This document shows positions 5,559 through 64,000 of a DNA stretch of 64,000 nt, piece by piece. The notes under the pieces were generated by a model that did no database searches, was not told the origin of the DNA, and was given only the letters and a program-made list of their open reading frames with translations. Numbering within the stretch: the stretch's first letter is position 1; every line of letters starts with the position of its first letter. The DNA is from Ignavibacteriales bacterium (GTDB taxonomy: Bacteria > Bacteroidota > Ignavibacteria > UBA10030), in assembly GCA_016193365.1 (NCBI GenBank), contig JACPSI010000042.1:25126-89125 (forward strand). Direction: 5' to 3'. Made by a program: the position numbers and the translations under genes.

Positions 5559-6395
5559 TTAATCGGAGACTTGTCCTCCCTGGCGTACGGCCGCGAGAAA
5601 TCCTCTCTTTGTTCTTTCCTGCTCTTTCGTTTCCGGAACAATCGCGTTTGTGTACGCCATGGTGCCGACGGAGTTTTCATAATATCTCATGATCCTGTCC
5701 ACATAACGAACGGTCTCCTTCCATCCCTCAAAGTAACCGTTCGGCGGCCGGTCTTGTTGCCAGAGGCCCTGGTGAAGCGTGTGGTATCTTCTGGAAAGCA
5801 ACGGCAGGGCATCGCGAACAGAATCCCAGCGACTCGGGTTGTGGCCAAGATACGCGGCAATCTGTCGAGCGTCGAGGACGCGGGAAATGCCGCCATTGTA
5901 TGCCGCGAGGGCCAGGCGAATACGGTTGTCCCTGTCGGTTTCCCTGAAAATGTGATAGAGCGATCTCAGATGGAATATTCCTGCCCTCACATTATTGTCG
6001 GGAGTCCTTGTTTCCTTCACACCGAGCTGCCATTTCAGTGTCGACTCTGTCGTTGGCATGATTTGCATTAATCCGTAGGCGCCTTTGTTGCTGACCGCGT
6101 CAGATTTGAATCCCGATTCCTGTCGAATGACCGACATGATGAGAACCCAGTCGAAGTGGTATTGTCCTGAATATCTTTGGACGAGAGGGAGATAGTCAAG
6201 TTCTGCGTCCACAAGACTCGGGGTCTCTTCGGGGAATGAGGCAGCGGTAAACCCTGCCACAGAAAAATCATTCTGCAAATGTTTCTTCCGAAAAACCGAA
6301 AGGCTTGTCACCGGCTCGAAACATCCAGCATGCAGGATGCACACCAGGAGCATCGCATTTCTAACGGTGATTCGGTAACGTTTTTGTTTCAACAT
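5559..6395 (-). CDS. Lytic transglycosylase (SLT domain)
   Basis: 278 aa. SLT catalytic motif ESGFKSDAVSNKGAYGLMQIMP, and AYNGG. Confidence 0.85.
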   Translation of the reverse strand: MLKQKRYRITVRNAMLLVCILHAGCFEPVTSLSVFRKKHLQNDFSVAGFTAASFPEETPSLVDAELDYLPLVQRYSGQYHFDWVLIMSVIRQESGFKSDAVSNKGAYGLMQIMPTTESTLKWQLGVKETRTPDNNVRAGIFHLRSLYHIFRETDRDNRIRLALAAYNGGISRVLDARQIAAYLGHNPSRWDSVRDALPLLSRRYHTLHQGLWQQDRPPNGYFEGWKETVRYVDRIMRYYENSVGTMAYTNAIVPETKEQERTKRGFLAAVRQGGQVSD

Positions 6396-6435
6396 ATTCC
6401 AGGACAGTATTCACGTCTGCAGAAAGTTCGCGGTG

Positions 6436-6561
6436 TCATGTGCTCATCGTCCCCGGCTCTTCTTTTTGGCGCCGCGACTTGTCCTCCCGCGAATGGGTAA
6501 TGGCCTCGAGAATGAGGATAAATGCCGCAATTCCACCAACGAACAAAATGATGTCAGTCAT
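6436..6561 (-). CDS. Possible small membrane peptide (41 aa)
   Basis: Manual translation gives MTDIILFVGGIAAFILILEAITHSREDKSRRQKEEPGTMST. It is one hydrophobic helix plus a basic tail, starts 12 nt after the upstream gene stop and ends 41 nt before the slt start. It is below the ORF-track length cutoff and rests on sequence only. Confidence 0.25.
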   Translation of the reverse strand: MTDIILFVGGIAAFILILEAITHSREDKSRRQKEEPGTMST

Positions 6562-6572
6562 AGAACCACTTT

Positions 6573-7607
6573 TCAGTTATTGAAGATTTCGCTCTGATCC
6601 GGTTTCCGGGCCGCTTGAGTTGCGACCGTGAAATCTTGCGATCCTTGTCCTGTCCTCGAGAAACCCGGCGTCAAATGTTGATAATGGTGCATACGAGCAA
6701 GGTCGATGCGGATGCGTGTTTCATCACCCCAATCGCTCCAATACACATCTTTCACGGGGAGAACGCCCAGACTGTGAGACGCACGTTCAAGAATAGCTCT
6801 GGAAAAATTGACCGACGGGAGCGACCTGAAGACTTCTTCGGCCGCCTCTTCCTCTCGCGTCGTTCCTATGGACTTCCATATTTTTTGAAAGGAAGAAAAC
6901 ATCTCCGGCGTGCATTCTCTGAACAAGCGGACAAACATTTCCGCGGTACCTACGAGTGTCATGGTATTCCATAGGCATCCTTTTTCAAACAGGAATTGCG
7001 TCAGCTCGTGTGCTGGTTTTTCCCAGAACTTCTTGACGTGAAAGATATTCTTCCCCTTCACCTGTCCAACGCAATCCCCTCTCTCAATCCAGCCATAGCC
7101 GGGTTGCAGGCTCGCGGGCCTGACTCCAAGGGTGACGATAAGTCCCGGAGTCCTTGCCACAAATGTAAACGCTCCCGCGACATACTCCATAAACCTTCGT
7201 TCTTCCAGAATAAAATGGTCTGCAGGAAAAATCGCGATAATGGCCTTCGGATCAACGGAATGGATGCGGGCAAGCGGAAGCAAGATCCCGGGCGCAGTTT
7301 CGCAGTTCAGCGGCTGCAAAACAACGCTTTGCGGTTCCCGGTCAAACAAATCATCCTTGGCGAACGACAGATGACGACGGCCTATGACTGTCACAAGGCG
7401 CGATCGGGGAATTAATGATGACGCGCGGTCAATCGTGTGCCTCAACATCGAACGCTTTCCAAGGAGCGCACAGAATTGTTTGGGCTTGTCCAATCCAAAA
7501 TGTGTCCTGAGAAAATCCTGAACCCGCTTCCCATCTCCCCCAGCCAGGATAATTCCCCAATAACGGTCCGATTCCGGTCTTCTGTTGGAAAGATTGAATT
7601 GTGTCAT
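6573..7607 (-). CDS. Mannose-1-phosphate guanylyltransferase / sugar nucleotidyltransferase
   Basis: 344 aa. N-terminal GIILAGGDGKR nucleotidyltransferase motif, and a length typical of GDP-mannose pyrophosphorylase. Confidence 0.78.
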   Translation of the reverse strand: MTQFNLSNRRPESDRYWGIILAGGDGKRVQDFLRTHFGLDKPKQFCALLGKRSMLRHTIDRASSLIPRSRLVTVIGRRHLSFAKDDLFDREPQSVVLQPLNCETAPGILLPLARIHSVDPKAIIAIFPADHFILEERRFMEYVAGAFTFVARTPGLIVTLGVRPASLQPGYGWIERGDCVGQVKGKNIFHVKKFWEKPAHELTQFLFEKGCLWNTMTLVGTAEMFVRLFRECTPEMFSSFQKIWKSIGTTREEEAAEEVFRSLPSVNFSRAILERASHSLGVLPVKDVYWSDWGDETRIRIDLARMHHYQHLTPGFSRTGQGSQDFTVATQAARKPDQSEIFNN

Positions 7608-56198: not shown

Positions 56199-58871
56199 TC
56201 AGCGACCCAGCCAGTATGACAGTTTGACGAGGAAGATATTGTCCGATGGCTCGCGGAGAAGTTCACCCGAATCGCGGCCAAATTCGAAATCCGATACATA
56301 TCCCACATGACTTCGCAAATGTTGCCAAACGACGAAGATTGTCGACCCCGGAAGGTATTCCCATCGCAGGACAAGGTTAGCCCGCACTGAACGGAAATTG
56401 AAGTCATCCTGTCCGAAGTTGTTCCCAAAGAAGAACGCGTTCGCCGGTCCGCCTCCGTCGGGATCGACCGTATACACCCGTGTCGCTGCATCATAGGTCA
56501 CCGTACCCTTATCCCGGCCGTACGCCGCGAAGTCATACGTCCCCGGTTGCAAAAATTCTTTGAAGAAATAGAAATCGCGCGCCTGAATGAACGGCTGGAT
56601 GACAAACTGCAGCGAGAGGTCCGGCGTGAAAGCCCAGTTCACTCGCGTGTTGAGCGACAAATTAGTGAGCGTTACGTCGGCGAACACGTATCGACGCCCA
56701 TATGTCGCGGCCGCCAATGAATCTGCCACACTCATAATATATTGGTCGGTGTCGCGTTCAAAGCCGAGTTGCGGTGTGAACTGGATTTGGATTGCCGGCG
56801 TCGGACGGAGGTTCAAGTTAAACGACACATACTTGTCGTATTCTCCAGAATAGTCCTCCCGGTACGAAACGCTCATGCCAACGACGACTTTATCGCGGCT
56901 GTCCGATTGAACGCTGAAACCGGTTCCGTATTGACCGACCACGGTCATGAGCGGACCGCCGCGTGTAAGTTTGTCGCTGAGGACATCGGGCCCCCAATAC
57001 GCATAACCGCTGAAGTTCCAGAAGCTCAAGCTGTTTGCATACCCCCCCACATTGTAGATTTCAAACATCCGGTCGCCGCCAAACGTCCACGCGTGGTTAG
57101 AGTAGCCGTAGATGCCGTAGTTACGGAAAGCTTGCCCGGGAGTGCGATCCTGATACTCTGCATATGTTGAGAATGCGCGGCGGTCTGCGAGGCTTGCAAA
57201 ACCCATGTCGTTGAGCTCGAGACCCGGAGAGCGTTCCTGATACGTCAGCGAGCCAATCCAGTTGCCCCCTCCGACTTTCATGAGAGTCGCCTCGCCTGCA
57301 AAGCCGCTGAGAGATGTTCTGTTCGCGTCAACTCCCAGATAATCGGCGTCGGGGCGTTGATAGTATCGTGCAGACGACCTCTGCGTTCGTTCAATGACGG
57401 CCTTATCACCGGCAACGCGGGACCCGGCGACAAATCCTCCGAAGAGCCAGTTTCGTTCGCCCCACCGATGTTCAAAATCGATGCCGCCCGTCGTCGCCGA
57501 CGAATGGAGGAGAGAATTGAACGCGGGATCGCTGAGGTTGCGATTCACAGATGTGATCAGACCGCCGACAAACGATTGTCCGTCGAAATCTTTCTTCACT
57601 CTGGTGACAAGATAATTTGTCAGAGGCTCCACCTCGACTGTTTGCTCGAGTCCTGAGCCGTCGATGTAGCGCGCAGATTCGCGTTGCGTCACCGCATTGA
57701 GTACTCCGACCGACAACCCCGACGATGTTTTCCCGCTGAGTTTTGCCGCGCCGAGGATCGTTGTCTGGTCTGGCACATCGACGTACGCTGCGCCGATTCC
57801 GCGCTGAGGCTGGCGGCCAATCCTCCTCGAATAAAAGTACTGACCTCCTCCGTAGCTGTTGTAGTTTCGCGTTCGCCCGAATGAAAAAATCTCCGACCCT
57901 TCAACAAAAAACGGGCGACGTTCGGGAAAAAATATTTCAAATGCTGACAGGTTCACCACAGCCGGGTCGACCTCGACCTGGCCAAAATCCGGGTTGACGG
58001 TGCCGCTGAGCGTAAAATCCGAAGTGACACCGTATTTGAAATCTGCACCGGTGTTGCCGAAGAAATCATTGGCCCGATAATACGGACTACCCGCAACGCG
58101 CTCCGGGGAACGTTTCACACGCGAAACAACGTATGGCTGAATTTCGAACCTCGCCGGCGCGCTTAAGCCCCTGATTCCCGTCAACGTTCCAAACCGTCCC
58201 ACGTAACTTCCGACGTCACCGGGCACGGGGCTCCAGAAGGAAAACTCTCCGTTGCGTGCGATGCGCCGTTGAAAATTAACACCCCATGTAAGGTCGTCTG
58301 TCGACTCGCTAAACCGTAATTGTGAAAACGGAATCCGAAACTCCGCCGTCCATCCGATTTCGTCCCTTGAGACCGAGGACTCCCACACGGCATCCCAACT
58401 GACGTCTTCCTGCGTGTCATTCGAAATCAAGATGTCTTTTTTCACTCCGGCCGGGTTCACGGCAAAGGAAAATGCGGTGCGACGGTCGAAGTAACTGTCG
58501 ATTTGCACGTAGAACCAGTCGCTCAATACATCGCCGTCGCGGCGAAACAACTCGCCGACGATGGAGTCCGGATGGTCGTATATGCGGGCGGCGACATAGA
58601 GTGCATCGTTGTCATAGAGAACGCGCACATCTGTAGCCTGAGATGCCGGTGCCCCCTCGTTGGGCCTCATTTGGACAAAATTGTTCGCAGCTGAGGTGTT
58701 CTTCCAGGCTTCTTCGTCGATCATGCCGTCAATGGTTACCGCGGTTCCCTCCAATCGGGAAGCCTGGTGAGACTTCGCAGAGTTTAAAGAAACAGAGACT
58801 TCGCCATTTTGACCGAAGGCTTGAATCGAACAAATACCTAGAAACAACAGTACTTCCTGGGCTCTTTGCAC
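56199..58871 (-). CDS. DUF5916/CBM9-like domain secreted or outer-membrane protein
   Basis: 890 aa. Signal peptide, N-terminal CBM9-like region (TIDGMIDEEAWKNTSAANNFVQMRPNEGAPASQATDVRVLYDNDALYVA), and a long beta-rich remainder. Confidence 0.68.
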   Translation of the reverse strand: MQRAQEVLLFLGICSIQAFGQNGEVSVSLNSAKSHQASRLEGTAVTIDGMIDEEAWKNTSAANNFVQMRPNEGAPASQATDVRVLYDNDALYVAARIYDHPDSIVGELFRRDGDVLSDWFYVQIDSYFDRRTAFSFAVNPAGVKKDILISNDTQEDVSWDAVWESSVSRDEIGWTAEFRIPFSQLRFSESTDDLTWGVNFQRRIARNGEFSFWSPVPGDVGSYVGRFGTLTGIRGLSAPARFEIQPYVVSRVKRSPERVAGSPYYRANDFFGNTGADFKYGVTSDFTLSGTVNPDFGQVEVDPAVVNLSAFEIFFPERRPFFVEGSEIFSFGRTRNYNSYGGGQYFYSRRIGRQPQRGIGAAYVDVPDQTTILGAAKLSGKTSSGLSVGVLNAVTQRESARYIDGSGLEQTVEVEPLTNYLVTRVKKDFDGQSFVGGLITSVNRNLSDPAFNSLLHSSATTGGIDFEHRWGERNWLFGGFVAGSRVAGDKAVIERTQRSSARYYQRPDADYLGVDANRTSLSGFAGEATLMKVGGGNWIGSLTYQERSPGLELNDMGFASLADRRAFSTYAEYQDRTPGQAFRNYGIYGYSNHAWTFGGDRMFEIYNVGGYANSLSFWNFSGYAYWGPDVLSDKLTRGGPLMTVVGQYGTGFSVQSDSRDKVVVGMSVSYREDYSGEYDKYVSFNLNLRPTPAIQIQFTPQLGFERDTDQYIMSVADSLAAATYGRRYVFADVTLTNLSLNTRVNWAFTPDLSLQFVIQPFIQARDFYFFKEFLQPGTYDFAAYGRDKGTVTYDAATRVYTVDPDGGGPANAFFFGNNFGQDDFNFRSVRANLVLRWEYLPGSTIFVVWQHLRSHVGYVSDFEFGRDSGELLREPSDNIFLVKLSYWLGR

Positions 58872-58966: not shown

Positions 58967-60016
58967 CTAGTGTTTCTTGTGGTGGGGACTGATTTCGTAG
59001 TGTCTTTTTAAATAGTCAATGCCAAAATCGTTTTTGAAATCCCTCCAGACCGTATGAACATGGTTGGCATCATCCTGTGTGTTGTCGTACTCAAGGACAA
59101 ACCTCGGTCCATGAATCCTGTAATAATTGCCTTCTCCCTCCGTTGTTCCCCCCGCCCATGCAAAATGGATTTTTTCTATCCCGTCTTTGCCGATGGCCGC
59201 AAGGTATTCATCTGCGATCTCCGTTCGGAAGTTGTTGATGTACTCCTCGACCAAACGCATGAGAAGTGCCCGCTGGTCGTGACTCATGTCTGAGGCGGCG
59301 ATGCCACTCGGCTTTCCTATATCTGCTTCCCGGTCTGACCCTGTGATAATATCCGAAGGCGCACGTGCTGAAATAATCGCCTTTGCCCGCTGACGATCGT
59401 CCAGGCTCAACACAAGTTCCTTCGCAAGATCTTCTTCGAACTTGAGGACTCTCAGTCCTTTATGAGGGCCGCCCCTCACGTTAGCCGGGTTGGCCCCAAA
59501 GAACGTCGGCGTTGTTGCGACAAGTTTATTCGTCACTGATGAATAGTTGACCGACAAATGGTGTCCTTCGATTCGCCAACCCCATGGCTGAATCCTTGAT
59601 GGCGCTCCAAAGATCGTAAGATAATAGAGATCGGGGTCGCGATGCCGACCCTCAATTTCGCGCAGAACGCTTTCCAGTACGATCACCGCCGTCGCCTTGG
59701 AATATCCTCTTTCGCTGAGAGTACTTTTGAGCAACGCGTGGGCGGCACGCCTTTGGCGGTCGTTCATTTCCTTGAGACTGACTCCCTTTCGCCTGCGCGG
59801 TATGAAATGCCAATTCAAACGTTCGTCATCCTCAAAAGCAATACGCGCTCTCGTTCCTAGTTCTGAATCGAGTTCATTCACGAATTGAATTGCCGCTTCG
59901 ACAACTTCAACCGTGGACCCCTCGCCTTTCTGCTGCCCGTTGGATTCGGCGAGAAATAAATATGCCGCCACAATAAGTCCCCTGTAAAAGTTACTCATAC
60001 AAATTTGGCCTTCCAT
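58967..60016 (-). CDS. DUF3500 domain protein
   Basis: 349 aa. Signal peptide, and DUF3500-like conserved blocks (WHFIPRRRKGVSLKEM..., GWRIEGHHLSVNY). Confidence 0.7.
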   Translation of the reverse strand: MEGQICMSNFYRGLIVAAYLFLAESNGQQKGEGSTVEVVEAAIQFVNELDSELGTRARIAFEDDERLNWHFIPRRRKGVSLKEMNDRQRRAAHALLKSTLSERGYSKATAVIVLESVLREIEGRHRDPDLYYLTIFGAPSRIQPWGWRIEGHHLSVNYSSVTNKLVATTPTFFGANPANVRGGPHKGLRVLKFEEDLAKELVLSLDDRQRAKAIISARAPSDIITGSDREADIGKPSGIAASDMSHDQRALLMRLVEEYINNFRTEIADEYLAAIGKDGIEKIHFAWAGGTTEGEGNYYRIHGPRFVLEYDNTQDDANHVHTVWRDFKNDFGIDYLKRHYEISPHHKKH

Positions 60017-60133
60017 CTGGCACAGGAAGTGATGGAATCATATGAGAATGTTCGATGGTTCGATGTTTTTTCGCAAATTTTGCACAGGAAAGCATATTTC
60101 TTAAATATTGAATTACTAAAAAAGGAAATTCTC

Positions 60134-60475
60134 ATGGACAAATTGAAGAAAATACAATCCAGTTCTCTAAAAAAGGATATCGATTGGGCTGTAGAGCTTC
60201 TTCTCGATGCTCAGTCAAGGGGATTCATGAAACTCCTTATGAAACGGCTGGAGAAAGAACCCCGCTACATTTTCTTCCACAAAATGAGTCTTGGTTTGGA
60301 AGTATCCTTCTGGCTTTCGCAATTGGGGTTTACGTGGTCAAACCGCAATGAAGAGGTCGAATTGAGCATCGAAGCGTTGGTGAGAGTGCTTTCCCAACTC
60401 ATTAACGAAAAAGAACAGAGAAGGACAGCATTCGCATCCGCCCGCGGCCACCTTCTTGATAAGTTCCATTCCTGA
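60134..60475 (+). CDS. Hypothetical protein (113 aa from the internal ATG; the ORF runs from 60005)
   Basis: An ORF on the opposite strand between the DUF3500 and DUF3124 genes, with no recognisable domain. The coding call is weak. Confidence 0.3.
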   Translation: MDKLKKIQSSSLKKDIDWAVELLLDAQSRGFMKLLMKRLEKEPRYIFFHKMSLGLEVSFWLSQLGFTWSNRNEEVELSIEALVRVLSQLINEKEQRRTAFASARGHLLDKFHS

Positions 60476-60486
60476 GTGTGTGACTG

Positions 60487-60864
60487 TCATTTCGCACTCT
60501 CCTGGATCACCTTTCCTGAACTTATGAACGATATCCCCTGGCCGGAGATCGTCCCAATCATCAGACATTCAACGATGGGAGCGTTGATTTCTTTTGCGGA
60601 GTTCCAGCGCACAATGAAATTCGACCCAACGCCACCCTCTGCCTTGCTTCTCGGGATGAAGATGTGCGTTGTTTCGAGAGGTTTGAGAACAACTTCTTTC
60701 TCCAAATACTTTTTTAAAAGCTTTCCCTCCGTGTCATAGAAATCTGCCAACGTCACAGTCAGGGAATTCGCGGGATCTGTATTGCGAATAATGAGCGTGG
60801 CTTCCAGGGGAAAAGCAATGGCCTTAGGAGCTGTGAAGATGTTTGAATACACCGAAACGTACAC
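60487..60864 (-). CDS. DUF3124 domain protein
   Basis: 125 aa with a GTG start. Beta-rich, with DUF3124-like TVYVSVYSNIF...LEATLIIRNTD...ETTHIFIP blocks. Confidence 0.55.
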   Translation of the reverse strand: MYVSVYSNIFTAPKAIAFPLEATLIIRNTDPANSLTVTLADFYDTEGKLLKKYLEKEVVLKPLETTHIFIPRSKAEGGVGSNFIVRWNSAKEINAPIVECLMIGTISGQGISFISSGKVIQESAK

Positions 60865-61064
60865 GGTTTGCCCTTGGGATAAGCTCAGGTCGCCGAAACT
60901 CAGGCCCTCAACAGGAAAAAATGCAAGACAGAAAAAGCAAGAACAACCCTCCGCGTGAAAGTTTATTATATGGCATGTTTGTCATGATGACTCGCCCTCC
61001 ATTTGATCTTCGAGAATTGTTAGAATGGCCTCTTAGGTTGCCGATTGAGTACCGCCGCTCCTGT

Positions 61065-61505
61065 TCACGCGGTTCCACCGGTTGCGTTCATTTCGTCAAC
61101 TAAACGCGGAATCGCCCTATTCAGGTTCCTGTTGTAGATCGCTGCAAATAGCCTTCCCAAAAGAGATACATTGAACCCGTCTGCTTCAACAATCCAAACC
61201 AACTTCGTTTGTCTCGCATTCACGGCTTCAAAAATATGGTTGTAATGAATCGTCAACCATAGAAACGTACCCACCCATTTCCAATTGACGTAAGGATTGA
61301 ATTCGGACATTGTGAAGGCAGATTTCATTCCGTTTCGAAGATGGATGATCCCTGTTGACATCGGCCCAAATGTCCCAGCGGGGGTTACCTCGATACTTCT
61401 GATATGTCCTGCCCAACTCGGCCATTGATCCACCCTCGCAAGATGGTTCCACGCCTTTTCTTGCCCGACTTCAACAATGAATTCACGTCGAACCAGCGTC
61501 AGCAT
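61065..61505 (-). CDS. SRPBCC-superfamily (polyketide cyclase/START-like) protein
   Basis: 146 aa. FIVEVGQEKAWNHLARVDQWPSWAGHIRSIEV is the typical SRPBCC N-terminus. Confidence 0.68.
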   Translation of the reverse strand: MLTLVRREFIVEVGQEKAWNHLARVDQWPSWAGHIRSIEVTPAGTFGPMSTGIIHLRNGMKSAFTMSEFNPYVNWKWVGTFLWLTIHYNHIFEAVNARQTKLVWIVEADGFNVSLLGRLFAAIYNRNLNRAIPRLVDEMNATGGTA

Positions 61506-61508
61506 TTT

Positions 61509-62234
61509 TCAGGTCTTCGTGCACCACGCAACCATGTTCTCCGTCAACAGACGCGATGAGTTCTTTGCTTCAATTTGCCGAACAAGTCTAATCATTGCGC
61601 GGACGCTTTTCCACAATGCGAGGTTGAATTTGCCGTCAAGTGTGTCCGGAATCGGTGCAGTCTCTTTGAATTGGATATTCGTGAAACCGTTCATTTGCAG
61701 GATTTGTCGAAGCGAATCTTCCGCAAAAATAGTCAGGTGAGTCAAATCGCCGTAAATGACCTGTCCCGGGAAAAGGCCCTGGCCATTTGGCGTCTGGAGA
61801 ATGAACAGGCTATCCTGCCTGAGCGACTTATGGATGAGCGGAAATAATGCAAAAAGCTCTTCCTTTGAGAAATGCTCGATGAAGTCGATTGCCACAATCG
61901 CCGCGTATGTATTGCGTTTTCGGGCCAAGAACTTGTGAGCGTCTTGTACGGATGCATTGAGCTTCTGGGAAGTTGCAATTCGAATTTGTTCTGTCGAAAT
62001 GTCGATTCCTTCTGCATCCGTGAATCCTTTGGCGCGGAGGAATTCGAGAAAATAGCCGGGGCCGCATCCGAGTTCCAGAATAGGATCCCGGGAAGAGCAA
62101 CTTGCCAGGAGCGGGTAGAATCTGTGTTGATAGATACGAAAAAACTCCGTCACGTGCTGTTCATTCCGATGGAGCTGGTCGCGCTTGAGAGTGGATACGT
62201 AACGCTTGTAGAGCGTTTTTCGAAAATCTTTCAT
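61509..62234 (-). CDS. Class I SAM-dependent methyltransferase
   Basis: 241 aa. Motif I ILELGCGPGYF; post-I acidic DAEGIDIS; motif II IVAIDFIEH. Confidence 0.8.
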   Translation of the reverse strand: MKDFRKTLYKRYVSTLKRDQLHRNEQHVTEFFRIYQHRFYPLLASCSSRDPILELGCGPGYFLEFLRAKGFTDAEGIDISTEQIRIATSQKLNASVQDAHKFLARKRNTYAAIVAIDFIEHFSKEELFALFPLIHKSLRQDSLFILQTPNGQGLFPGQVIYGDLTHLTIFAEDSLRQILQMNGFTNIQFKETAPIPDTLDGKFNLALWKSVRAMIRLVRQIEAKNSSRLLTENMVAWCTKT

Positions 62235-62246
62235 CGCGTCCCGAGT

Positions 62247-62678
62247 CTACACATCGAGCCTTTTTTCGTACGGCACAACCTCGCCAAACTCCACGTAGCG
62301 TTTTAAGAGCCTGAGATACATCGCCCAGCAGAAGCAGGAAGTCCGATAATGGTCGTTGGATTCAGGCCAGCCGAGATGATGAAAGCGTACTTGAGTGACG
62401 CCGTTGCTTTCTTCCAGGTCAAAGCCTACCCGCGTTGGTTCCCAATCTCTGTCCGCTTTTGCGATTTTCAGCTCAAATTCCTTCGCACGCTTGCACTGAG
62501 ACACGATTGCGCGCCAATCGTATTCAGGGCCGAACCAGAGAGAGTATTCTGCCCCCACTTTTGGCTCTCCGGAACTTTTTTTCGTCCACCACGCATCCAG
62601 GCCGCGCGGAGAGGAAACCGCGTCGAAAACTCGTTCCGCTGAAGCATTAATGGGGAAATCGTGGAGAATATCGGGCAA
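62247..62678 (-). CDS. SRPBCC-superfamily protein (AHSA1/Aha1-like)
   Basis: 143 aa. INASAERVFDAVSSPRGLDAWWTK is the AHSA1-like start. Confidence 0.68.
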   Translation of the reverse strand: MPDILHDFPINASAERVFDAVSSPRGLDAWWTKKSSGEPKVGAEYSLWFGPEYDWRAIVSQCKRAKEFELKIAKADRDWEPTRVGFDLEESNGVTQVRFHHLGWPESNDHYRTSCFCWAMYLRLLKRYVEFGEVVPYEKRLDV

Positions 62679-62696
62679 GGTTGTCTGCTTTCGGAA

Positions 62697-63332
62697 TTAT
62701 TCAAACCCTAAAATTGACCAAGCGATTCCAAAGTTCATTCTCACAGCAGTCACCGCCTCAGCGTCTTCATAACTCATTCGCGTTCCGAGAATCTGAATCT
62801 CATAGATCTCAGCTATGACAAGGCTGCCTCCGAAAGAAAGGTGGCTGCCTTCAATCTCGTTTATCCCGCTGCTGTATCCTCCCCCGCCGGGTCCTGTATA
62901 GATCGTCGGTTCACCGGTTTTCATGGAAATGTTTGCATAACCATAGCTTCCCTGCACATACAATTGGGCCTTGGCAAATTCGAAAAGTGATCTCCTGATG
63001 CCGAGGTCAAAAATAAAAGTGTTGGCGGGAACATCTTTCAGGGTTTCGAAATCACCGCTCCCGAAGGTCCAATCAAGATTCATCATGAATATCAGTTTTG
63101 GGGAGAGTCCAAAACCCCAACCCAATCCTCCGCCTAGGTGTGTTCGCGTCACATAGTTTTCGCGTATCGATCCTATAATTCCTTCAGATTGGTATTCACG
63201 AAGAACGCTCGACCCTGATTGTGCAGCAACATGCCCCGCAACAAAAAAAGTAAGTTGCGAGTGGGCGTGAGAAAACATACCAAGAAATAAAACCGTTGAC
63301 AAGACTAAGCGCGATCTCAATGAAGCCTCCAT
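62697..63332 (-). CDS. Outer-membrane beta-barrel protein
   Basis: 211 aa. Signal peptide (LVLSTVLFLGMFSHAHSQ), alternating-hydrophobic beta strands, glycine-rich loops and an aromatic C-terminal strand. Confidence 0.55.
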   Translation of the reverse strand: MEASLRSRLVLSTVLFLGMFSHAHSQLTFFVAGHVAAQSGSSVLREYQSEGIIGSIRENYVTRTHLGGGLGWGFGLSPKLIFMMNLDWTFGSGDFETLKDVPANTFIFDLGIRRSLFEFAKAQLYVQGSYGYANISMKTGEPTIYTGPGGGGYSSGINEIEGSHLSFGGSLVIAEIYEIQILGTRMSYEDAEAVTAVRMNFGIAWSILGFE

Positions 63333-63365
63333 TAGATTTCGTTACAAGATGAACTTTGAAATGCT

Positions 63366-64000
63366 CTAGGCCGCTTTTTTCCCAAATTCCGGATCGACCT
63401 TTGCCAGCTTTGCCACCACGAAGCCCGGTATTGTGGCTATGCAAACCCAGATAAAGAAATTTTGATAACCAAGCCACTTCTGGATGTCGCCGCTGAACAT
63501 TCCCGGAATCATCATTCCGAGCGCCATGAAACCGGTGCATAAAGCAAAATGGGCTGTCGAGTGTTTACCCTGAGCTACGTACAGCATGAAAAGCGAATAC
63601 GCCGTGAATCCGAACCCGTAGCCGAATTGTTCGAATGCCACACACAGATTAATGATAAAATAGTTGTCCGGCTGGACGTACGCAAGGTAGACATACACGA
63701 GGTCGGGAATATTAATTGCTAAAACCATGGGCCACAACCAGAATTTGAAGCCCTTCCTTGCGGCTGCGATGCCGCCCAGAAGCCCCCCGATCGTAAGAGC
63801 AGAAATGCCAACGGTACCGTAGATAAATCCGACATCAGTTGTTGTAAGAGCAAGCCCACCCGCTTCCCGCGCATCCAGCATGAACGGCGAAGCCAACTTG
63901 ACGAGCTGAGCCTCGCCGAGTCTGTACAAAAGTAAGAAGGCCAATATAGGGCCTATATTTTCCTTTTTGAAGAACGCAACGAACGTCATGAGGAATTCTT
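63366..64000 (-). CDS. MFS-type transporter, C-terminal part (5' portion lies beyond the window end)
   Basis: At least 211 aa of hydrophobic helices (about 6 TM). The frame stays open past 64000, so the gene is truncated by the window. Confidence 0.6.
   Translation of the reverse strand, partial: EFLMTFVAFFKKENIGPILAFLLLYRLGEAQLVKLASPFMLDAREAGGLALTTTDVGFIYGTVGISALTIGGLLGGIAAARKGFKFWLWPMVLAINIPDLVYVYLAYVQPDNYFIINLCVAFEQFGYGFGFTAYSLFMLYVAQGKHSTAHFALCTGFMALGMMIPGMFSGDIQKWLGYQNFFIWVCIATIPGFVVAKLAKVDPEFGKKAA

Follow-up and report, generated by a model that had tools for sequence, protein, structure and literature searches.

A probable mosaic of accessory genes behind an AmpG-family permease in an Ignavibacteriales bacterium

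Do five consecutive, closely spaced genes, for a transporter, an outer-membrane barrel, a methyltransferase and two SRPBCC proteins, form a dedicated system to import, export or modify a small hydrophobic molecule? This question is raised by positions 58,967 to 64,000 of the window (the whole stretch of 64,000 nucleotides analysed here), where a first-pass annotation had proposed one such system and listed the DUF3124 and DUF3500 proteins downstream in the same cluster. We think it likely that an envelope and peptidoglycan-recycling gene run of this uncultured Ignavibacteriales bacterium instead has a mosaic 3′ end here. The finding is largely an ordinary one, because the genes behind the cell-wall-recycling permease gene ampG appear to be ordinary accessory content that varies between close relatives.

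The ORFs and family calls of that annotation were all reproduced by ORF and profile analysis. Along the minus strand, the run begins with an MFS permease gene of the AmpG family, of which the window holds the last 211 codons (63366..64000) and which codes for 419 aa in two independent contigs, L001 and L002, where it is complete. It is followed by a small outer-membrane β-barrel protein of 211 aa with a signal peptide (62697..63332), an AHSA1/YndB-type SRPBCC protein of 143 aa (62247..62678; PF08327, 53.5 bits), a class I SAM-dependent methyltransferase of 241 aa (61509..62234; Methyltransf_23, PF13489, 72.7 bits) and a second SRPBCC protein of 146 aa (61065..61505; Polyketide_cyc2, PF10604, 31.0 bits, cut-off 27.4). 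The close spacing described before holds, with successive gaps of 33, 18, 12 and 3 nt, and it did not arise through misassembly, since four independent read assemblies (L001–L004) give the same gene junctions. Co-orientation is uninformative at this locus, as the window has 49 ORFs that reach 100 aa and 41 of them lie on the minus strand; gaps of 35 nt or less separate 41% of the co-oriented neighbour pairs in the window. With so little sequence between them, the five genes could plausibly be co-transcribed.

The MFS protein resembles AmpG. The AmpG-family profile of NCBIfam (TIGR00901) matches the window fragment at E 5e-26 and the full-length protein at 178 bits (E 2.4e-52; profile positions 14–414 of 417), a score under the curated cut-off of 350 bits, and its sequence matches in the PDB were only AmpG structures (8zgz and others, E 5.5e-17). 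Moreover, a SpoIID/LytB gene lies directly upstream, and genes for a NagK-like kinase, GT2, GNAT and DUF4922 proteins make up the run to which both belong. From its sequence, we read the protein as an AmpG-family muropeptide permease with a likely role in the import of peptidoglycan fragments. In the FCB group, a comparable arrangement is the peptidoglycan-scavenging operon of Tannerella forsythia (Tanf_08345-08385, gtf-gtf-lytB-ampG-ybbC-murTKQ), whose genes are co-transcribed (PMC5388701). Both loci have an AmpG-type MFS gene directly 3′ of a SpoIID/LytB-domain gene, with glycosyltransferase genes and a BadF/BadG-type sugar kinase in the same co-oriented run, but they differ after ampG, where T. 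forsythia has ybbC and murTKQ and the window has the outer-membrane barrel, the two SRPBCC genes and the methyltransferase. The flanks examined showed no homologue of MurQ or MurT. Past the window end, where the first-pass annotation had suggested looking for a regulator, no gene within about 7.5 kb upstream of ampG is annotated as one.

The 211-aa protein is predicted to be a rare, divergent small outer-membrane β-barrel. A word-indexed search of 5.8e9 clusters recovered the protein alone, and an exhaustive phmmer search of 1.84e9 representatives yielded five relatives at 36–40% identity, for a family of six clusters. PF13505 (OMP_b-brl) matches four of the six members (best E 9.4e-10); the window protein itself has no Pfam match even at E ≤ 1. 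Its AF2 model (pLDDT 82) is nearly all β-strand past the signal helix, with about 10 long strands counted, and Foldseek searches of the PDB with this model returned Ail, OmpA, OmpW, OmpX and NspA (E down to 5e-7), with a probability of 1.0 for Ail, OmpA, OmpW and OmpX, which are 8- to 10-stranded barrels. The matches of its relatives and the resemblance of the model thus bear out the earlier guess of an outer-membrane barrel. The protein shares a signal peptide, richness in Gly and aromatic residues and a predicted all-β structure with OMP_b-brl, OmpA N-domain, OmpX, Ail, OmpW and NspA proteins, whereas its family carries a conserved PTIYxGPGG-YSSG loop motif of its own and the window protein ends in GFE and not in an aromatic residue. 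The gene has a GC3 of 0.46, tied lowest among the minus-strand genes of the locus, it is missing between ampG and AHSA1 in L005, L011 and L006, and its relatives neighbour DUF1611 or TPR genes. On our preferred reading, the outer membrane would have gained this barrel opportunistically.

The remaining members of the run belong to broad families. The AHSA1 protein, a single-domain member of the AHSA1/YndB-type SRPBCC proteins (PF08327, COG3832) above the Pfam cut-off, matches the solved Aha1-domain protein 2m89 at E 5e-14. It has more than 1100 relatives, the best 120 of which are 64–77% identical and named from several phyla, so that the subfamily is unusually conserved. Three sampled orthologues, about 70% identical and from several phyla, lie in unrelated contexts: one inside a ribosomal-protein operon, another amid small proteins of mostly unknown function and the third adjoining a GH3/β-lactamase fusion gene. 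The methyltransferase keeps a GCGPG motif and D78, D98 and D117 invariant in 22 relatives, reaches no equivalog cut-off in NCBIfam and has its best PDB match in 3dli (E 4e-16), deposited simply as 'methyltransferase'. The second SRPBCC is retained in the nearest relative only (74% identity), and none of its three sampled metagenome relatives (51–57% identity) adjoins a methyltransferase or AHSA1 gene.

Comparison of gene neighbourhoods indicates how little of the run is kept together. Synteny with the nearest relative (L005/L011; methyltransferase 80% identical) extends from the NagK-like gene as far as Ku, except that the relative lacks the barrel and DUF3124 and has AmpG and AHSA1 separated by 2 nt. 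Among 50 species-level loci with a methyltransferase relative, a neighbour from the five-gene run occurred within 8 kb in L011 only, as judged by single-query tblastn, which very divergent SRPBCC neighbours escape; the sole other neighbour matches were a relative of DUF5916 in L026 and, at a distance of 6 kb, one of SpoIID in L032. No SRPBCC appeared among the 25 most frequent Pfam families of the 79 ORFs immediately flanking the methyltransferase relatives. The set as a whole is therefore not co-conserved, an outcome that the first-pass annotation had itself named as evidence against its proposal. Only the AHSA1–methyltransferase pair persists, the presence of the barrel, the second SRPBCC and DUF3124 varying among relatives. 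The two genes adjoin each other in L005/L006, L088 and L089, the pair recurring in two further metagenome contig types with methyltransferases 72% and 62% identical; in L088 the order is AHSA1–methyltransferase–DUF3500, with gaps of 10 and 52 nt, and in L089/L090 the pair is found in reversed order.

Downstream, the spacing widens to 200 nt between the second SRPBCC and DUF3124 and to 470 nt between DUF3124 and DUF3500. The DUF3124 domain (PF11322, 151.9 bits) is encoded on the minus strand by an ORF of 125 aa with a GTG start and without a signal peptide (60487..60864), and an orphan minus-strand ORF of 25 codons (60908..60985; translation MTNMPYNKLSRGGLFLLFLSCIFSC*) encodes a lipoprotein-like signal peptide out of frame with it. 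A frameshift of 1 nt lies at a T6 run (60916-60921), where deletion of one T restores a 165-aa DUF3124 precursor, and the same frameshifted sequence occurs in the independent assembly L003; the gene is thus probably disrupted, with its lipoprotein signal peptide cut off. On the opposite strand, an ORF of about 113 aa with a coding pattern (60134..60475, plus strand; maximal ORF 60005-60475) has DUF3500 as its divergent and DUF3124 as its convergent neighbour. L011 and L006 carry an ORF in the corresponding place and direction that is 56% identical to it over 126 aa, with differences by codon position of 40/25/67 and a conserved core, a pattern by which the window ORF is a real conserved small gene, and it had no match in Pfam or PDB searches. 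This divergent gene sets DUF3500 and DUF5916 apart from the upstream run as a separate unit, a pair kept in L005/L011. The family calls for the two downstream DUF proteins were correct, but neither protein speaks for a single system, one being frameshifted and the other part of this separate unit. The DUF3500 protein (58967..60016, minus strand; PF12006, 313 bits) gives a full-length match (E 5.6e-62) to the PDB entry 9x86_A 'Amc20' in which the His-rich motifs GHH and NHxH are conserved. It thus resembles the DUF3500 family (Amc20, Aspergillus AN10530) and differs in having an N-terminal signal-like extension. Directly 3′ of it, outside the interval first annotated, there is a minus-strand gene for a CBM9-like and DUF5916 protein of 890 aa (56199..58871; PF19313, 225 bits; PF06452).

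Against this background, it is very unlikely that the AmpG-like MFS protein, the barrel, both SRPBCC proteins and the methyltransferase constitute one operon-encoded system for methylating a small hydrophobic molecule and carrying it through both membranes. SRPBCC domains have hydrophobic ligand pockets in general, the five genes share one strand with gaps of 3–33 nt, the barrel looks like a genuine OMP-type barrel and the AHSA1–methyltransferase pair is found repeatedly. However, AmpG abuts AHSA1 in the closest relative, where the barrel is lacking, AmpG and the second SRPBCC are both absent from L088 and L089, and the whole set is not co-conserved in 50 genomes. The family calls behind the single-system proposal stand, but with this lack of co-conservation and an AmpG-like protein tied to SpoIID/LytB, the single functional module does not.

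A narrower and still distinctly improbable reading is of a clade-specific module that handles plant-derived phenolics and consists of AHSA1, the methyltransferase, DUF3500 and perhaps also CBM9/DUF5916. The SRPBCC protein would bind an aromatic compound for O-methylation by the methyltransferase, and DUF3500, acting outside the cytoplasm, would cleave polyhydroxybenzene rings. The B. subtilis AHSA1 protein YndB reportedly binds flavonoid-type ligands. The three genes lie within 2.5 kb in the window and in L011 and are consecutive in L088, in L026 and L089 a methyltransferase relative has DUF5916 beside it or nearby, and DUF3500 shares its His motifs with the solved Amc20 structure. Moreover, a fungal DUF3500 protein has been genetically implicated in ring cleavage of 1,2,3,5-tetrahydroxybenzene (PMC10832562). 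On the other hand, the supporting loci are all close relatives whose synteny may be inherited, L012 (methyltransferase 67% identical) has no such neighbours, and in the window the opposite-strand gene separates DUF3500 from the methyltransferase. In addition, DUF3500 looks like an exported protein, unlike AHSA1 and the methyltransferase, which have no signal peptide, and aromatic-catabolism genes, such as the FAH-like and monooxygenase neighbours in the fungal gallate clusters (PMC10832562), are lacking around the window gene.

Modification of an envelope glycan, or of an imported amino sugar or muropeptide, by the methyltransferase and AHSA1, as a functional extension of the GT2–GNAT–DUF4922–SpoIID–AmpG cell-envelope operon, also seems unlikely, if less so. 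The pair stands behind AmpG in the window and immediately behind it in L005, in L089 it follows an HGSNAT-type membrane acetyltransferase, and the GH3/β-lactamase fusion beside one AHSA1 orthologue is presumably NagZ-like. Families frequent beside methyltransferase relatives include MurJ/MatE flippases, GNAT, Wzz/GNVR, GT1/GT4, FkbM and GT9; the neighbours of such relatives in other phyla are genes for Wzx/MurJ-type flippases, Wzz, GT4, GT9 and FkbM, and one Acidobacteria locus is an O-antigen-type cluster. However, relatives at 36–50% identity may differ in substrate, those at 55–58% are flanked by unrelated housekeeping genes (UDG, VIT1, YceI, aminotransferase, RmuC), and upstream of the pair in L088 there is no envelope gene but a TPR gene on the other strand. 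We also know of no methylated muropeptide pathway, which counts against this reading.

Returning to the favoured mosaic, the five tightly spaced genes would probably be read through on one transcript from ampG or from further upstream, and AHSA1 and the methyltransferase might act on one common ligand, our preferred guess being that an envelope glycan or an amino-sugar-derived compound is methylated, with a phenolic compound as the alternative. As a counterpoint, five genes with gaps of 3–33 nt look like a typical operon, and they may therefore be co-expressed and have some common role. A small functional AHSA1–methyltransferase module may also exist inside the mosaic, since the pair survives rearrangement and adjoins DUF3500 in L088.

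All the ORFs that the first-pass annotation had named in this minus-strand run were recovered, and their family calls were reproduced with Pfam and NCBIfam. The run opens with an AmpG-like MFS transporter gene (63366 to beyond 64000, where it runs off the window), followed by a 211-aa protein without a Pfam match, hereafter the barrel (62697-63332), an AHSA1-type SRPBCC protein (62247-62678; PF08327), a class I methyltransferase of the Methyltransf_23 family (61509-62234; PF13489), a second SRPBCC protein of the Polyketide_cyc2 family (61065-61505; PF10604) and a DUF3124 protein (60487-60864; PF11322). A plus-strand ORF without any family match (60005-60475) separates the latter from a minus-strand DUF3500 gene (58967-60016; PF12006), after which a CBM9/DUF5916 protein identified with Pfam is encoded on the same strand (56199-58871). 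The tight spacing described for the first five genes is also real, with gaps of 33, 18, 12 and 3 nt on one strand, and the next two gaps past the second SRPBCC gene measure 200 and 470 nt. Identical junctions in four independent read assemblies speak against a chimeric assembly, which was rejected; the DNA comes from an uncultured Ignavibacteriales bacterium, the name attached to proteins that match those of the window exactly. Co-orientation as such is uninformative, because the minus strand holds 41 of the 49 window ORFs of at least 100 aa. Moreover, gaps of 35 nt or less occur in 41% of the co-oriented neighbour pairs in the window, and given this double background a shared strand and short gaps argue weakly for an operon here. 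Scans for sigma-70 promoters and terminators did no better than the shuffle background, the Bacteroidetes-type -7 motif TAnnTTTG was not enriched (25 matches vs. 22.7 expected), and Rfam scans of the region and its upstream loci revealed no riboswitch and no other RNA family.

The idea that these genes constitute one functional module did not survive comparison with their relatives, where co-conservation beyond inherited synteny was not found, with the exception of the pair formed by the AHSA1 and methyltransferase genes. The nearest relative (GCA_016207415.1, loci L005 and L011) is syntenic from a NagK-like kinase gene to Ku, showing after the NagK-like run the order AmpG, AHSA1, methyltransferase, second SRPBCC, a small ORF on the opposite strand, DUF3500, DUF5916 and Ku. 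It keeps the set without the barrel and DUF3124 genes, AmpG and AHSA1 being 2 nt apart, and two of the seven genes initially grouped together therefore vary in presence between close relatives. A further contig without the barrel gene (L006) and a contig arranged like the window were recovered from one and the same sample. In a wider survey anchored on the methyltransferase, with one genome per species, 50 loci contained a real relative of this protein. When all the window and upstream proteins were searched by tblastn within 8 kb of it, relatives were found in L011 alone (methyltransferase 80% identical), apart from two isolated exceptions, L026 having a DUF5916 relative and L032 a SpoIID relative lying 6 kb off; the other 49 species-level loci contained no AmpG, barrel, AHSA1, second SRPBCC, DUF3124 or DUF3500 relative within that distance. 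The AHSA1-methyltransferase pair recurs in two further metagenome contig types (L088 and L089). When the 79 ORFs directly flanking the methyltransferase in 40 loci were scanned with Pfam, no SRPBCC ranked among the 25 commonest families, the most frequent being MurJ and MatE flippases (8 and 7), GNAT (8), Wzz/GNVR (5) and MeaB (5), together with GT1/GT4 (4), FkbM (4) and GT9 (3). One locus from Acidobacteria corresponds to a typical O-antigen/Wzy cluster, and relatives with 55-58% identity are flanked by UDG, VIT1, YceI, aminotransferase and RmuC genes.

The full-length transporter (419 aa, as read in the independent assembly L001) matches the profile of the AmpG family of muropeptide MFS transporters (TIGR00901; TC 2.A.1.25) with 178 bits (E 2.4e-52) over profile positions 14-414 of 417, a score below the curated cut-off of 350. 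The second-best family, RhtX/FptX, reached only 81.7 bits, and all four PDB sequence matches are AmpG structures (E 5.5e-17). The genes upstream, read from L001, L002 and L005, all lie on the same strand and comprise a NagK-like kinase of the BadF/BadG type (121 bits), then GT2, GNAT and DUF4922/GDPGP1_C genes in that order, and, directly upstream of the transporter in the three loci, a gene for a SpoIID/LytB-domain protein (TIGR02669, 169 bits vs. a cut-off of 83). The transporter gene is, in this regard, associated with genes of peptidoglycan turnover. Genes for AhpC and DsbD are found further upstream on the opposite strand, and the genes within ~7.5 kb upstream of the transporter include none annotated as a regulator, which the first-pass annotation had proposed to look for just beyond the window end. 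In Tannerella forsythia, another case from the FCB group, gtf-gtf-lytB-ampG-ybbC-murTKQ form a single transcript, and its AmpG is functional though only 24% identical to that of E. coli (PMC5388701). The lytB-ampG arrangement would be common to both bacteria. Given the AmpG profile, the AmpG-only PDB matches and the Tannerella parallel, the preferred reading of the transporter gene is that it closes a run concerned with cell-wall recycling and the envelope, and the transporter does not look like an importer of a hydrophobic small molecule.

The outer-membrane barrel proposed for the 211-aa protein holds. A word-indexed homology search returned only the protein itself, whereas an exhaustive phmmer search among 1.84e9 representatives detected five relatives (36-40% identical; 205-225 aa). 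All the members of this family show a hydrophobic, signal-like N-terminal segment and share a PTIYxGPGG-YSSG motif. The OMP_b-brl family (PF13505) is matched by four of the six members (four of the five relatives), with a best E of 9.4e-10, and the window protein gave no match at E<=1; because the relatives match and the window protein does not, Pfam support for the latter is transitive only. An AF2 model from the single sequence was unusable (pLDDT 33), whereas the six-sequence alignment from the exhaustive search gave a usable one (pLDDT 82.3, pTM 0.71), with an N-terminal hydrophobic signal helix at residues 2-21 followed by ~10 long strands by count. Foldseek searches against the PDB with this model retrieved Ail, the OmpA transmembrane domain, OmpW, OmpX, NspA and Pla with probability 1.0 (E 5e-7 to 1e-4 and TM ~0.5 for the first five). 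The protein is thereby predicted to combine a signal peptide with a closed antiparallel beta-barrel fold, and would represent a rare small subfamily of outer-membrane proteins with its own conserved loop motif. Its relatives adjoin DUF1611 or TPR genes, not AmpG or AHSA1, and its GC3 (0.46) is the joint lowest among the minus-strand genes of this region.

At the other end of the cluster, the ORF on the opposite strand is a real gene, kept in L011 and L006 at the same place and orientation with 56% identity over 126 aa. Differences by codon position (40/25/67) fall mostly at the third position, around a strongly conserved core. Conservation sets in near an ATG at 60134, which leaves a small protein of ~105-113 aa (60134-60475, plus strand, ~113 aa; minus strand of L011, 9235-9555) with the core KKDxDWAVELLLDAQSRGF...PRYxFFHK...WLSQLGFxWSN, for which Pfam, NCBIfam and PDB sequence searches came back empty. 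Because this gene points away from DUF3500 and towards DUF3124, the DUF3500-DUF5916 genes cannot belong to the upstream transcript. Lying divergently upstream of them in both genomes, the small gene could encode their regulator. The DUF3124 match (151.9 bits) spans the complete domain, at profile positions 4-123 of 123, and the lipoprotein-like signal peptide of the protein (MTNMPYNKLSRGGLFLLFLSC...) is found in another frame, in a minus-strand ORF of 25 codons that ends in TGA (60908-60985). A 1-nt frameshift at a T6 run (60916-60921) accounts for the split, and removing one T restores an intact precursor of 165 aa. As the independent assembly L003 carries the same T6 run, the gene either has become a real pseudogene or contains a site of slippage or phase variation. 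A PDB search with DUF3124 was empty. The DUF3500 protein matches PF12006 with 313 bits over profile positions 5-296 of 297, as well as the solved structure 'Amc20' (9x86; E 5.6e-62), and conserves GHH and NHxH motifs. Literature searches on 'Amc20', DUF5916 and DUF3124 gave no functional information.

The methyltransferase (PF13489, 72.7 bits) belongs to a family spread over many phyla at 36-80% identity, and is predicted to adopt the Rossmann fold of class I SAM-dependent enzymes, with the GxGxG SAM motif and acidic residues (G56-C57-G58-P59-G60, D78, D98 and D117) invariant in 22 relatives. Some sources name its relatives UbiG or cyclopropane-fatty-acid synthase. Both readings were rejected, with 29.6 bits vs. 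an NCBIfam equivalog cut-off of 103 for UbiG and 38 bits vs. 400 for the CFA synthase, and so was that of a polyketide cyclase within a biosynthetic cluster; PKS and quinone-biosynthesis genes are absent from the vicinity. The AHSA1 protein passes its gathering score clearly (53.5 vs. 22.1 bits), and the second SRPBCC does so marginally (31.0 vs. 27.4); a metagenome scan with the latter found three relatives only, on short contigs and 51-57% identical, none of them next to a methyltransferase or AHSA1 gene. AHSA1 has more than 1100 relatives, the best 120 of which are 64-77% identical and mostly of exactly 143 aa, and those listed are named by their sources as coming from Ignavibacteriales, Bacteroidota, Acidobacteriota and KSB1. 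Three sampled orthologues, ~70% identical, occur in three differing contexts: between the genes for ribosomal proteins S10 and L3 in a JGI metagenome contig (L083 6001-6432; 70% identical by tblastn), in an Acidobacteriota MAG amid genes for small proteins that are mostly DUFs, and directly upstream of a gene for a 959-aa fusion of both GH3 domains with a beta-lactamase domain (L085 747-3626), which we take to be NagZ-like. Such conservation in unrelated contexts suggests strong constraint, frequent transfer, or both. The S10 operon is an unusual site for an accessory gene, and the fusion is another peptidoglycan-turnover neighbour of this subfamily, besides AmpG in the window.

Within the cluster, functional linkage finds some support for the AHSA1-methyltransferase pair alone. 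In L088 (methyltransferase 72% identical), an opposite-strand TPR gene comes before AHSA1, which lies 10 nt from the methyltransferase, and DUF3500 follows the latter after 52 nt. In L089/L090 (62% identical) the order of the pair is reversed: DUF5916 lies ~4 kb upstream, the methyltransferase comes after HGSNAT, and 13 nt separate it from AHSA1 (59% identical), behind which an SDR gene is found; a further relative, L012 (67% identical), is without the pair. All these loci are close relatives, and inherited synteny may lie behind the recurrence. CBM9/DUF5916 relatives with 33-34% identity occur in L026 (1229-4731; named Ignavibacteriales) and L089 (1-1929, with the methyltransferase relative at 6001-6726), adjoining the methyltransferase relatives or within 4 kb of them in these two further lineages, which hints at a loose association.

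The best-supported reading of the stretch, and one that we regard as probable, is a mosaic. An AmpG permease would close a peptidoglycan-recycling and envelope run, after which a rare outer-membrane barrel, the AHSA1-methyltransferase pair and the second SRPBCC would follow, probably co-transcribed by read-through; we infer this read-through of the five genes, as we do any substrate of the pair. A frameshifted lipoprotein gene (DUF3124) would come next, and then a separate divergent unit, in which the small gene and DUF3500-DUF5916 occupy opposite strands. The single system for a small hydrophobic molecule initially proposed has the compact spacing of the five genes in its favour and the variable genes and muropeptide-type transporter against it, and is improbable. 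For the pair itself, set behind AmpG in the window and seen in other contigs away from it, we lean tentatively towards an envelope glycan or amino-sugar-derived substrate. A phenolic-handling module made of the pair and DUF3500 is a rather doubtful alternative: the three genes adjoin in L088, and the plus-strand gene intervenes in the window.

Inside the mosaic there is a slim chance of a real and so far undescribed module restricted to one Ignavibacteriales clade, in which a highly conserved AHSA1 binding protein and a dedicated methyltransferase, kept in either order and repeatedly beside DUF3500 and CBM9/DUF5916, would act on a polyhydroxylated aromatic (plant-phenolic) or amino-sugar-derived metabolite. 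If true, an AHSA1-methyltransferase(-DUF3500) module would offer the first functional context for bacterial DUF3500 and this AHSA1 subfamily. As it stands, the consequence is small: the run looks coherent in its transporter, barrel, binding proteins and methyltransferase, but would be an accretion, behind a permease of peptidoglycan recycling, of genes variable between close relatives, which warns that deducing function from composition and spacing is unsafe in a strongly strand-biased region. Nothing here departs from known kinds, the run being a new FCB-type lytB-ampG instance to which accessory genes, not the same ones in each close relative, have been added. As by-products, the Tannerella arrangement would extend to Ignavibacteriales, the recurring pair could be tested, and a bacterial DUF3500 now has a relative of solved structure as well as a lead from fungal genetics.

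Two further observations concern the upstream region. The 127-nt spacer between the SpoIID and AmpG genes, beyond the window end (L001 3517-3643), contains a perfect inverted repeat of 11 bp, GTAGGGACACG-(6 nt)-CGTGTCCCTAC, followed by a TTGACA hexamer and with no U-tract behind the hairpin, which could be a transcription punctuation or processing site. The tightly packed genes for the NagK-like BadF/BadG kinase, GT2, GNAT and DUF4922/GDPGP1_C, the latter with a HIT-like nucleotide-sugar phosphorylase fold, lie upstream of SpoIID-AmpG (L005 800-4752; L001 588-2114) and could allow Ignavibacteriales to salvage or activate amino sugars, in a way comparable to the MurK and AmgK/MurU routes.
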